Shown here in pieces: positions 3,028 through 6,204 of a DNA stretch of 44,905 nt; the stretch's first letter is position 1; each line of letters begins with the position of its first letter. The notes under the pieces are model-generated. The model had not been told where the DNA came from. It did not search any database and saw nothing but the letters and a program-made list of their open reading frames with translations. This DNA is from Deltaproteobacteria bacterium (lineage in GTDB: Bacteria > Desulfobacterota > QYQD01). Where the stretch lies: assembly GCA_007280345.1 (NCBI GenBank), contig QYQD01000026.1:1-44905 (forward strand), given 5' to 3'. Both the position numbers and the translations under genes were made by a program.

Positions 3028-5019
3028 TTATATTTTAAACCCTGTGATTTTTAAAATTAAATTCAGCAGACCTCCCACCGTAAAGGCCACAGCCAGGATA
3101 AAACCACTTATGGCCGCACCAATTTTCCAGCCCCTTTCTTTGACGATGACCAGGAAATTCGCCAGACACGGGACGAACAAGGTCATAGTTACCAATGCCA
3201 CCAGTATCTGTTCGGCGCTCAGCGCATGCGCCCGCGCCAACGCCAGAAGACCGGCTGCGCCATAGTCACGCCGCAAAAAACCGATGAGAAAGGCCTGGGT
3301 GGTCTCTACCGGAAGTCCCAGTACGCCTTTAATAAACGGTGCAGCTCCGTTTTCGATATGTACCATTATCCCGGCCCTATCCAGTATAAAAAGTATAAAT
3401 GTGCTCAGGGCAAAGAGGGGTACGGCCTCTTTTAGATACCACTCAATACGGGACAATGTCTTAATGAGAATATTCCCGATCCTGGGAAGGCGGATAGGCG
3501 GGAGTTCCAGGACAAAATCGGAGGATTCGCCCGGCAGATAGCGTGCCGCCAGGTAGCCGACCACTGCCAGGACGAGGCCTACGACCCCGGCCCAGAGCAC
3601 AACCAGCATGGGAGAAAATCCGGAGAGCATGCCGAAAATAATGGCCATCTGCGCCGAACAGGGGACGCCCAGGGCCAGGAGCAGGGTAACGATAATTCTA
3701 TCCCGCTTGCTTTCCAGGATGCGGGTGGTAAGCGTAGCCATAACGCCACACCCCAGCCCCAGAATCATAGGCAGAATGGCCTTTCCATTAAGACCGATTA
3801 ACCGGAATATCTTGTTACTCATAACCGCCAGCCGGGGCAGATAACCGGAATCCTCCATCAGGCCGAAGGCTATGAAAAAAAAGGTAATAATAGGCAGGAT
3901 CAGGGCAAAGGCATAGGTCATGGCCATGGTCAGAAGACCATACTGACCGACCAGCAGGTCCCTCAGCCAGGCCACCGGCGCCAGGCGCTCGGTCCATCTT
4001 AGGAAAAAGGGGTTGATATACTCTCCGAAAACCGTCTCTTCCATAAAGTCAACGGCCACGCCGGCGCCAAAAACGCCGATTACCTGATAGAGTAAATAAA
4101 CCGCGCCTATCAGAATAACCACGCCCCAAAACGGATGTACGGATAGTTCACCGATGCGGGTGGAGAGCCGCTTCCGTTTGATAGGATTAATCATGGTCAC
4201 CCGGCGCACAATTTCATCCGCCTTTTCCAGACGGGCCTGATTAATCAGATAGCTTATGGGTTGATCGAATCCGGCCTGGCATGATCTCCGGATCGCCTCG
4301 ATCTCATTGACCCTGGATTCCGGCAGGCGTGCATGCAGCCATCGTTTAAGACTTTTATCCCCGGAAAGGAGCATGATAGCGATGGAACGGGGGCTTATAT
4401 TCTCTGCCGGCAGGAAGTCCGCTATCTGAGAAACGGCCTCTTCAAGGGCCGGAGGATAACTTATATGCAATGTGGCCTCTCTCAGATCACCAAGCTCTTC
4501 CGTTATTTTTTCCAGATTCTTTTTCTGTGTGGCTACTGTGGAGATGGCCTTGGCGCCGATCAGCGAGGAAAGTTCCTGGTAATTTATTTTAATGCCGCGT
4601 TCGCGGGCCTCATCCTCCATATTAAGCACAAGAAGGAAAGGCAATCCCATTTCGGCCAATTGGCTGGATATAAGGAGGCTGCGGCGCAGATTTTTGGCAT
4701 CAGCCACCTGGACGATTAAGGCATCCTTCTCATTAAGTAAAATATTGCGCGTAACTATCTCATCTTCAGAGGTGGGCAGCAGGCTGTTTACGCCCGGCGT
4801 ATCCAGCACAGTAACATTTTTACCCCTCCATTTAGTCGTACCATGTGAAACCTCTACGGTCGTCCCCGGATAGTTTGAAACCACTACGTATTTACCGGTC
4901 AGGTAGTTGAAGACCACGCTTTTACCCACGTTCGGGTTGCCGATCAGTATGATTTTCTTTGTTGACTTCCGGTTAATATCCTTACTCTCCATGCCCCTAT
5001 TTTTTCCCCGCTTTCTCAT
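3028..5019 (-). CDS. feoB: Ferrous iron transport protein B
   Basis: G1 GNPNVGKS, NYPGTTV, DTPG, LNMED; EDSGYLPR, gate motifs LGCG/VPCSAQ/FVPCLA. Start 5019 or 4992. Confidence 0.96.
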   Translation of the reverse strand: MRKRGKNRGMESKDINRKSTKKIILIGNPNVGKSVVFNYLTGKYVVVSNYPGTTVEVSHGTTKWRGKNVTVLDTPGVNSLLPTSEDEIVTRNILLNEKDALIVQVADAKNLRRSLLISSQLAEMGLPFLLVLNMEDEARERGIKINYQELSSLIGAKAISTVATQKKNLEKITEELGDLREATLHISYPPALEEAVSQIADFLPAENISPRSIAIMLLSGDKSLKRWLHARLPESRVNEIEAIRRSCQAGFDQPISYLINQARLEKADEIVRRVTMINPIKRKRLSTRIGELSVHPFWGVVILIGAVYLLYQVIGVFGAGVAVDFMEETVFGEYINPFFLRWTERLAPVAWLRDLLVGQYGLLTMAMTYAFALILPIITFFFIAFGLMEDSGYLPRLAVMSNKIFRLIGLNGKAILPMILGLGCGVMATLTTRILESKRDRIIVTLLLALGVPCSAQMAIIFGMLSGFSPMLVVLWAGVVGLVLAVVGYLAARYLPGESSDFVLELPPIRLPRIGNILIKTLSRIEWYLKEAVPLFALSTFILFILDRAGIMVHIENGAAPFIKGVLGLPVETTQAFLIGFLRRDYGAAGLLALARAHALSAEQILVALVTMTLFVPCLANFLVIVKERGWKIGAAISGFILAVAFTVGGLLNLILKITGFKI

Positions 5020-5545
5020 CTGAAAATCCCCCTGTATCCCCCTTTTCCAAAGGGGGAATATGATGGTGCCCCCCTTTACTAAAGGGAGGTGAGGGGGGAT
5101 TTTTCTCTTTTTTCAAGCAATCCGCACATGCACCGTATATCTCTAATCTGTGATCTTTGATAGCGAAATGATGGCGTGCCGCTATCTCCTCCTGCATCTT
5201 TTCGATGCGGTTATCCGTGAATTCAAGTATCTTCCCGCAGGAGATACATATCAGATGGTCATGATGCTCTCCCTGATCAACATTCTCATAACGGGTCTGT
5301 CCATCGGCAAACTTCCTCTCCACCGCCATCCCGCACTCTGTCAGCAGTTTTAGGGTTCGATAGACGGTGGTATAACCTATCCGGGGATTGAAGCGGGCCG
5401 CATGCCGGTAAAGCTCATCTAAGTTTACATGGCCCTTTATACTGAAAAAAATCCGGGCTATCTCATCCCGCTGACGTGAAGACTTGAGCTTCTTCTGGGC
5501 AATATATCCTTTAAGGACACCCTGCTTTTTATTAACAGCTTTCGT
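4997..5545 (-). CDS. fur: Fur-family transcriptional repressor (full length, apparent non-canonical ACG start)
   Basis: Frame stays open upstream of the 5329 ATG, giving KAVNKKQGVLKGYIAQKKLKSSRQRDEIARIFF...IGYTTVYRTLKLL; then HHDHLICISCGK and GACADC. GGAGG lies 8 nt before ACG at 5545. Confidence 0.88.
   Translation of the reverse strand, partial: TKAVNKKQGVLKGYIAQKKLKSSRQRDEIARIFFSIKGHVNLDELYRHAARFNPRIGYTTVYRTLKLLTECGMAVERKFADGQTRYENVDQGEHHDHLICISCGKILEFTDNRIEKMQEEIAARHHFAIKDHRLEIYGACADCLKKEKNPPSPPFSKGGHHHIPPLEKGDTGGFSDEKAGKK
5024..5102. repeat. Double-hairpin palindromic element (AAATCCC...GGGATTT), copy 1, inside the fur 3' end
   Basis: Two CCCCTTT..AAAGGG(G) hairpins within terminal inverted ends; related copies at 6129-6204 and 11224-11300. 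Confidence 0.8.
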
Positions 5546-5583
5546 GGAAACGCCCTCCCTTCACCTGCAAGCCTCCCCTTAAA

Positions 5584-5606
5584 ATGAAAATGAATTTCAT
5601 TTTCAT
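5584..5606. promoter_or_regulatory. Fur-box-like operator upstream of fur-feoB
   Basis: Perfect 11-1-11 palindrome ATGAAAATGAA-T-TTCATTTTCAT; TTGACA on minus strand at 5639-5634. Confidence 0.75.
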
Positions 5607-5744
5607 AATCTATTTAAGACATCCTCCGGGTCTTGTCAAGGGAAATAAGCGCTGGAATATTGGGTGTTGACTTTTATCCACAATTAACTTAGCTATAAGG
5701 GCCTATAGCGTTACCTTAAATCCCAGACTTAACCAGGATAAGAA

Positions 5745-5912
5745 ATGCCCTGTAAGACATGCGGCGGCCAGCTCTCCATCGTCAGGACCTGAAGGGACGT
5801 AATCCTGCGCTGCAAGGATTGCGGCCGCAAATATACAGTTAAAGAACTGCTTGGCGAACTGGATGAAGATTTACTGGAGCGGATCGCCATGATCCGGTGT
5901 GACCGGGTCTAA
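5745..5912 (+). CDS. Dual-CXXC small selenoprotein (55 aa, Sec at codon 16)
   Basis: MPCKTCGGQLSIVRT-U-RDVILRCKDCGRKYTVKELLGELDEDLLERIAMIRCDRV; TGA at 5790-5792 lies between two CxxC motifs and is followed by a SECIS-like hairpin. Confidence 0.8.
5798..5823 (+). promoter_or_regulatory. Putative bacterial SECIS hairpin
   Basis: CGTAATCCT pairs with AGGATTGCG around GCGCTGCA; the apical loop starts with G about 16 nt after the UGA. Confidence 0.65.
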
Positions 5913-6128
5913 TCCCATGAATAGCCCGAAGACCAAAAACAACCTGCCGGTAATCCCTTCCAAGCTAAAAAACGCCCCTAATCCTTCAAATGCCGCAAAA
6001 TTTCTCGACGTTATAAAATCAGACCTCGCCCGGAATATCTATAATAAATATGGCGTTGTCCCTCACTTCGTATAGTTTTAGCAAACACTGTCTAAAAATA
6101 GAGTGTTGTTTTATACCAAGTTGCGTTC

Positions 6129-6204
6129 AAATCCCCCTTAATCCCTCTTTTTCAAAGGGGGATATAATCTCCCCCTCTTTGTAAAGAGGGGTCAGGGGAG
6201 ATTT
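6129..6204. repeat. Double-hairpin palindromic element, copy 2
   Basis: aaatcccccttaatccctctttttcaaaggggg...ccccctctttgtaaagaggggtcaggggagattt. Confidence 0.75.

Follow-up and report, generated by a model that had tools for sequence, protein, structure and literature searches.

The window analysed here is the whole stretch of 44,905 nucleotides of contig QYQD01000026.1 from a Deltaproteobacteria bacterium (NCBI GenBank assembly GCA_007280345.1). The gap between its fur and pyrF genes holds a 55-codon gene (Table 1). The fur and feoB genes lie upstream and are divergent from it, in agreement with the first-pass annotation, while pyrF is convergent downstream. The reading frame contains a single TGA codon, located between the motifs CKTC and CKDC, and all the coordinates originally assigned to the start, the stop and the internal TGA hold. 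Translated with TGA as selenocysteine (U), the product reads MPCKTC...VRT-U16-RDV...CKDC...RCDRV and features the motifs C3-K-T-C6, R14-T15-U16 and C23-K-D-C26. No plus-strand ORF of at least 30 amino acids in the translation table 11 list covers positions 5745-5912, which is why the gene was missed by the ORF track, as had been claimed. The nearest plus-strand ORF (5899-6075) overlaps only the last codons of the gene.

Two metagenome contigs from different studies, X4 from groundwater and X5 from sediment, span the gene. Both have positions 5790-5792 unchanged and, as the two metagenomes are independent, the TGA is not a sequencing error. The groundwater contig carries congener-type substitutions at positions 5789, 5794, 5803 and 5818. 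In the one RNA run compared (X20) coverage is found only at 5271-5477 and at the repeat 6126-6164, both outside the gene.

A dispersed short repeat of the type CCCCCTT...AAAGGGGG occupies positions 6102-6200, with a core at about 6127-6164. It gives 32 blastn matches on 26 contigs of the genome and has a very high summed contig depth in four metagenome/metatranscriptome runs; one sediment contig is devoid of 6092-6194. The translations of the repeat (FSKG-, EKEG-like) resemble by eye two protein tails, the carboxyl-terminal one of Fur (about 5000-5100) and that of paralog L041.

Table 1. Features of the fur-pyrF interval and its borders (coordinates of the window)
Feature	Position	Strand	Remarks
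Predicted dual-CXXC small selenoprotein CDS	5745..5912	+	55 residues; ATG 5745-5747 to TAA 5910-5912; translated with TGA = U
UGA codon 16, predicted to be read as selenocysteine	5790..5792	+	sole in-frame TGA; TGA or Cys at the same column in homologues
AGGA, ribosome-binding-site-like	5735..5738	+	6 nt 5' of the ATG; kept in 7 congeners
Hairpin S1, SECIS candidate	5798..5823	+	9-bp stem CGUAAUCCU/AGGAUUGCG, extendable to 5794-5826; apical loop GCU 5809-5811
Hairpin S2, alternative SECIS candidate	5809..5825	+	7-bp stem GCUGCAA/UUGCGGC; loop GGA
Conserved upstream block GTTGACTTTTAT...ACTTAGCTATA	5666..5697	+	TTGACT at 5667-5672; likely the gene's own promoter
Perfect 11+1+11 palindrome ATGAAAATGAA-T-TTCATTTTCAT	5584..5606		Fur-box-like operator candidate just upstream of fur
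fur and feoB, divergent neighbours	3028..5562	-	fur frame about 5562-4997; feoB 5019-3028
pyrF, convergent downstream	6991-6269	-	

Family membership and the codon at position 16

The product was scored with Cys substituted for Sec against NF041197, an NCBIfam equivalog model named 'dual CXXC motif small (seleno)protein' that has a curated cut-off of 40 bits. The match reaches 64.6 bits (E 6.7e-18) and aligns residues 3-55 with positions 1-53 of the 53-position profile. In a six-frame search, where the stop was left in, the same model scores 55.3 bits across one TGA. Sixteen Pfam zinc-finger or zinc-ribbon families are found at E ≤ 1, every one of them below its own cut-off. The NF041197 family is OS_HP3 of Zhang & Gladyshev 2007 (PMC1976440). 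Two selenoproteins of this family are listed there in Table 2 and the predicted SECIS appears in Figure 5E; its table entry and figure legend show that the family has been in print since 2007. OS_HP3 is also tabulated with the motif RxU in a 2026 review (PMC13188914). The entries for OS_HP3 in these two publications give no function.

The assignment to this family is based on a score above the cut-off over the whole model, on two CXXC motifs within 55 residues (members have about 55-70) and on Sec at RxU. The statement in the first-pass annotation that small dual-CXXC (seleno)proteins with RxU/RxC exist in deltaproteobacteria is borne out by this full-length match within the same phylum. Size, the two CXXC motifs, Sec at RxU, a SECIS directly downstream and the phylum are all shared with OS_HP3. 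The gene differs from other OS_HP3 lineages in the T found between R and U in this genus and in the adjacency to fur-feoB, a link seen only in this order.

A search for relatives with the single protein as query yielded 5 true relatives and 3 chance matches from Natrialba. When a natural Cys-form relative was used to query the ESM Atlas, only clusters bearing the same family name were found. In 41 related genomes, a six-frame search detected 22 matches distributed over 14 genomes; 21 of these matches contain exactly one TGA and one contains none. All 21 TGA codons fall at one column, where the exception has Cys. The phylum was searched in 401 genomes, of which 91 yielded a match at E ≤ 1e-5 and 76 a match above the cut-off. 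The 76 above-cut-off rows, counted from the table, divide into 52 with one TGA and 24 with no stop, and 30 of the 32 rows below the cut-off have one TGA. The loci read number 91, all from the same phylum (22 from the 41-genome search, 29 from the 401-genome search and 40 additionally fetched). At the Sec column, 67 of them have TGA and 24 a Cys codon (TGY); no other codon occurs. Homologues with Cys aligned to the UGA, which the first-pass annotation proposed to look for, are thus present, and neither Trp nor Arg occurs at this column at the DNA level in the 91 loci. Only C3, C6, U16, C23 and C26 are invariant among 54 aligned members.

The comparison of the 7 genus genomes reveals 22 variable sites in the gene, with 14, 5 and 3 of them at codon positions 3, 2 and 1, respectively. 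Downstream of U16 there are 13 variable codons, 7 of which vary with no residue change, the TAA/TGA stop codon included. TGA is the true terminal stop of the selenoprotein gene in 5/7 genus genomes and ends 433 of the 1272 ORFs of at least 250 amino acids in the genome under study. Its common use as a stop speaks against a general reassignment, so the internal TGA requires local recoding.

The same frequent use of TGA (433/1272 long ORFs), its definition as a stop in translation table 11 and the lack of selD and of tRNA-Sec(UCA) in this assembly would all fit a real stop at codon 16. The locus would then code for a peptide of at most 15 residues or be a decayed pseudogene whose downstream frame is open by chance. 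Such an arrangement is extremely improbable: most of the family match lies downstream of the UGA (profile 1-53 of 53), this downstream part evolves like coding sequence, and TGA recurs at one column in 67 loci belonging to many genera, with Cys there in 24 others. One stop kept at one column across genera does not correspond to a pseudogene. It is the family match (E 6.7e-18) together with the comparison with relatives, and not the hairpin alone, that places the ORF beyond chance.

The Sec forms of the family are mishandled by the gene calls behind public protein records, of which the best 150 of 303 family representatives were examined. Fragments of at most 50 amino acids account for 24 of these best 150, most of them starting just after the Sec column. 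In a protein-only library, 7/106 small full-motif representatives have W at the Sec column. One of these W proteins has a motif identical to that of locus L117, whose DNA has TGA. The W residues most likely are TGA codons translated under another code by the pipeline, which for the other six proteins would hold by extension. Longer proteins were considered as candidate domain fusions; the handful read among the best 150 of 303 seem either to come from gene calls extended too far or to be unrelated proteins with several zinc fingers.

A second TGA-bearing dual-CXXC gene is found on another contig of the source genome, G000 (G000:C172:10461-10637; L002:1486-1662, + strand). It codes for 58 residues with the arrangement CIFC...GR-U-YND...CKDC, and its ATG comes directly after the TAG of an upstream gene, which weakly matches CxxCxxCC (PF03692). 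The word-indexed protein collection yielded no full-length relative of this paralog. The paralog group has the motif CIFCGG...G[RK]U[YFA]N.RVVCKDCG; of its loci that were read, 17 are Sec forms and 1 is a Cys form. Four members scored with Cys for Sec reach 35-46 bits with NF041197, three of the four being below the cut-off of 40. The group shares with the main family its architecture, the Sec column and an S2-type hairpin (see next section), while the carboxyl-terminal half differs. The group appears to be a poorly annotated branch of the NF041197 family.

Hairpins downstream of the UGA and the decoding machinery

The first-pass annotation reported a hairpin directly 3' of the UGA, with a loop G about 16 nt away, and attributed to it the geometry of bacterial SECIS elements. 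Both statements stand. Hairpin S1 has a 9-bp stem, to which two inner and two outer pairs can be added, and its loop starts with G5809, 16 nt after the UGA. The loop of a second hairpin, S2, is found 23 nt after the UGA and its stem is centred on the codons of the second CXXC. S1 and S2 overlap and are mutually exclusive. In the consensus bacterial SECIS model (PMC13188914) the first two loop positions include a G, located 16-37 nt from the UGA, and both S1 (16 nt, GCU) and S2 (23 nt, GGA) agree computationally with this geometry. An Rfam scan of the window gave no match, either at the hairpin or elsewhere.

S1 has a minimum free energy of -16.4 kcal/mol, and S2 has -8.5 kcal/mol. The fold does not stand out from dinucleotide shuffles of a 56-nt segment (z -0.96; 35/200 shuffles as stable). 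When 300 synonymous recodings of the same 15 codons are taken as reference (mean -7.86), it is unusual, with z -3.17 and 1/300 as stable. The mean z of synonymous recoding is -1.47 for Sec forms (20/50 at ≤ 0.05) versus -0.82 for Cys forms (2/23).

Both structures were followed in 50 main-family Sec forms aligned without gaps. S1 is paired in 69.3% of cells, against 39-48% in slid controls, and its covariation is 0.321 versus a shuffled mean of 0.230. For S2, taken in its extended 9-pair form, 74.0% of cells are paired, against 26-52% when slid, and the covariation is 0.297 versus 0.213; in neither case are any of 500 shuffles as high, though these hairpin statistics overstate the effect because the sequences are related and not independent. 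At least 8/9 pairs of S1 or at least 6/7 pairs of S2 are found in 43/50 main-family Sec forms versus 1/23 Cys forms, the two structures having been derived from members of the same sequence set used for these counts. Both hairpins are present in 9 of the 43 qualifying Sec forms, S2 only in 25 and S1 only in 9, while 7/50 Sec forms have neither hairpin in the S1 and S2 registers. The S2 loop triplet begins with G in 41/50 Sec forms.

Within the genus all 7 pairs of S2 are kept in 7/7 genomes, and S1 has a C.U mismatch in 5/7. The S1 pair concerned, 5803/5818, is U-A here, C-G in congener G003, a compensatory change, and C.U in 5 congeners. The paralog group is mostly in the S2 register (mean of 5.65/7 pairs; at least 6/7 in 11/17). 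S1 is thus the more stable hairpin in this genome and S2 is the hairpin that the genus as a whole and both subfamilies have kept, a situation in which SelB may use either. The predicted arrangement resembles the SECIS of the E. coli fdhF type in having, within the ORF and immediately 3' of the UGA, a stem-loop whose small apical loop starts with G. It differs from that type in that two overlapping, mutually exclusive hairpins fit, both of them covarying.

Verification of the Sec machinery, also proposed by the first-pass annotation, gave a split result. The source genome (81% complete, 223 contigs) encodes selA (647 bits vs cut-off 268) and a full-length selB (366 bits vs cut-off 242). At this completeness no selD is found (best match 40.6 bits vs cut-off 125), and no TCA anticodon is present among its 33 ARAGORN tRNAs. 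Both missing components occur in 5/5 searched congeners, which are 97-98% complete: tRNA-SeC(tca) with 74-78 bits and selD with 381-385 bits. Each congener selD, found at loci L054-L058 of G001, G002, G004, G005 and G006, bears one in-frame TGA, which makes the selenophosphate synthetase of the genus a selenoprotein as well. The Sec machinery is thus present in the genus; for G000, in which selD and tRNA-Sec(UCA) were not found, a complete set is argued from the congeners, and these gaps are best explained by assembly incompleteness.

A tRNA(Sec)-like tRNA of 89-93 nt with the Cys anticodon GCA is encoded at G000:C6:155-247 (L014:155-247, + strand). It is the sole match above threshold to the tRNA-Sec model in G000 (C6:155-243, 52.6 bits) and accompanies the canonical tRNA-SeC(tca) in 5/5 congeners. 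It fits the selC* tRNA(Cys) class, which has been described in anaerobes equipped with a full Sec apparatus as well (PMC5389517). Only one selB was detected in G000.

This tRNA brings in the alternative of UGA16 being decoded as Cys or another standard residue, either by a selC*-type tRNA(Cys) or by near-cognate read-through. A selC* tRNA(Cys) with an opal anticodon that inserts Cys at UGA has been described (PMC5389517), and Cys is functional at the column in 24 relatives. However, the anticodon of the Sec-like tRNA is GCA here and in 5/5 congeners, which means that it reads the Cys codons UGC/UGU and not UGA. The congeners furthermore possess the canonical tRNA-SeC(tca), selA, selB and selD, and a hairpin linked to TGA is what SelB-dependent insertion requires. 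Decoding as a standard residue is accordingly judged highly unlikely.

The NF041197 match, the Sec/Cys column, the hairpin associated with Sec and the Sec machinery together support the hidden selenoprotein gene put forward by the first-pass annotation. From its sequence, the segment 5745-5912 of the plus strand is very probably a genuine gene for a 55-residue NF041197/OS_HP3 member whose UGA16 is predicted to be read as Sec. According to the established bacterial pathway, SelB-GTP with Sec-tRNA(Sec) would bind the SECIS hairpin a few bases 3' of UGA16, in frame, and the ribosome would then insert selenocysteine and not terminate.

Genomic neighbourhood and upstream signals

The fur-feoB pair is found upstream of the selenoprotein gene in 8/8 genomes of the order (7 of the genus and G008). 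Outside the congeners, fur is next to the gene only in G000 and L031, of the same order, among 67 family loci. The flanks were surveyed in these 67 main-family loci, one per genome outside congeners, and in 13 loci of the paralog group. They are heterogeneous, with FabD in 9 loci, a TGS GTPase in 9, an HI0933-like flavoprotein in 6 and ArgJ in 5, and also DnaX, TopA and TPR proteins. No conserved partner gene is found in the flanks of the 67 main-family and 13 paralog-group loci. Such heterogeneous neighbourhoods give no pointer to a partner or pathway.

Two conserved elements separate fur from the selenoprotein gene. The block with TTGACT stands at a constant 77-81 nt from the ATG in 7/7 genus genomes. 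In a MAFFT alignment a GTTGACTTTT-like stretch is also recognized in G008, of the same order; a 12-mer search of G008 with one mismatch allowed did not find the TTGACT block. The palindrome, positioned 60 nt upstream of this block, is kept with 0-1 changes in 7/7 genus genomes at 159-334 nt from the selenoprotein ATG, and was not found in G008. The distance between palindrome and ATG varies because the spacer varies, the palindrome staying with fur. The simplest reading of these sequence features is that the palindrome serves fur, for which it is a candidate autoregulatory operator, and that the selenoprotein gene has its own promoter. A Fur-type operator on the gene's own promoter, kept wherever the gene occurs, was not observed. 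The suggestion of the first-pass annotation that the gene may share the regulation of fur-feoB therefore retains the adjacency in 8/8 genomes of the order; against it stand the restriction of this adjacency to part of the family, the gene's own upstream block and a palindrome that moves with fur.

A promoter-scan match at 5633-5661 was discarded, being no better than shuffles (3 found vs 2.0 expected) and not the block conserved in relatives. The fur frame (4997-5562, - strand) is open to about 5562 and encodes the amino-terminal DNA-binding part of the protein. It has no in-frame ATG, GTG or TTG upstream of the Met at 5329; a rare start such as ATT is possible.

Predicted fold and possible roles of the selenoprotein

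The AlphaFold2 model, built from 54 aligned members, has a mean pLDDT of 78.4, with predicted strands at residues 9-14, 19-23 and 29-31 and helices at 32-35 and 41-48. Sec16 is placed in the turn (residues 15-18) between the first two predicted strands, with the basic neighbours R14 and R17. The second CXXC is followed by an acidic helix and then by a conserved carboxyl-terminal DR[LIV]. Foldseek gave no match to the PDB at E ≤ 0.001, the best being ZifS 8yoz with E 0.19, and VIA-align wide gave no Z of at least 5 (best Z 3.4). The weak structural matches are zinc ribbons, namely those of ZifS, RNA polymerase and NrdR. Searching the literature for ZifS led only to unrelated chemistry papers on 'ZIFs'. 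Among PDB sequences, a profile comparison picked out the HypA zinc domain (E 7.2e-5), aligned at profile positions 19-51, which correspond to the second knuckle and the helix. Resemblance to LysW is below threshold (NCBIfam 18.8 bits vs cut-off 75; PDB profile E 0.075-0.08).

The zinc-ribbon character proposed by the first-pass annotation is consistent with the four invariant Cys and the predicted beta-hairpin fold, while no structural match is significant and no Pfam family exceeds its cut-off. Small stand-alone zinc ribbons such as ZifS 8yoz, RNA polymerase subunits and LysW are similar in having two knuckles ~16 residues apart, a three-stranded sheet (predicted here) and ~55 amino acids. 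They differ in having no fifth invariant Cys/Sec at the hairpin tip, and the matches to them are all weak. C3, C6, C23 and C26 would form the two knuckles of the predicted ribbon, with Sec/Cys in the hairpin turn between them. Canonical zinc ribbons have this turn of their long beta-hairpin at the end distant from the two knuckles. On the predicted scaffold Sec16 would thus be exposed, away from the knuckles. The usual interpretation of a Sec/Cys pair suggests, by analogy, that Sec16 acts as a redox nucleophile. The zinc-ribbon scaffold would then present one exposed reactive selenol, which would exchange with thiols, disulfides or metal/chalcogen on some partner.

Alternatively, Sec16 might not be a redox nucleophile and serve instead as a metal or cluster ligand, either as a fifth ligand or bridging two chains, or as the covalent attachment site of a LysW-like carrier. 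The five invariant Cys/Sec, the sub-threshold resemblance to LysW (18.8 bits vs 75; E 0.075-0.08), the weak one to the HypA zinc domain (E 7.2e-5) and the acidic helix with a conserved extreme carboxyl terminus all point in this direction. Sec is furthermore a metal ligand in several newer selenoprotein families (PMC13188914). To judge from the predicted secondary structure, however, Sec16 is at the far turn and a monomer could not bring it to the zinc site. The LysW and HypA similarities are all below curated cut-offs, and the family flanks have no conserved partner gene. A ligand or carrier role is thus rather unlikely, though it keeps an appreciable share of the probability; the preferred role of Sec16 is that of an exposed redox nucleophile.

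A more specific proposal ties the selenoprotein functionally to iron uptake in this order. Kept head to head with fur-feoB in 8/8 genomes, it would be a LysW-like Sec zinc-ribbon adaptor or carrier. Its exposed selenol would handle Fe(II) or some other metal, or transmit the redox state, for FeoB/Fur, and the two mutually exclusive SECIS hairpins could tune the yield of full-length protein. This is a speculative long shot, to be considered improbable. It is more likely that the divergent paralog group is a selenoprotein subfamily missed by the curated model and by gene callers.

Both the family and its decoding mechanism, the ordinary bacterial SelB/SECIS route, were already known, and the locus offers no decisive clue to function. 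Its analysis corrects the annotation of this genome by one gene and a second paralog on another contig, both invisible to standard gene callers, and shows how the family is treated in public protein sets, where some of its members appear as fragments or with W at the Sec column.
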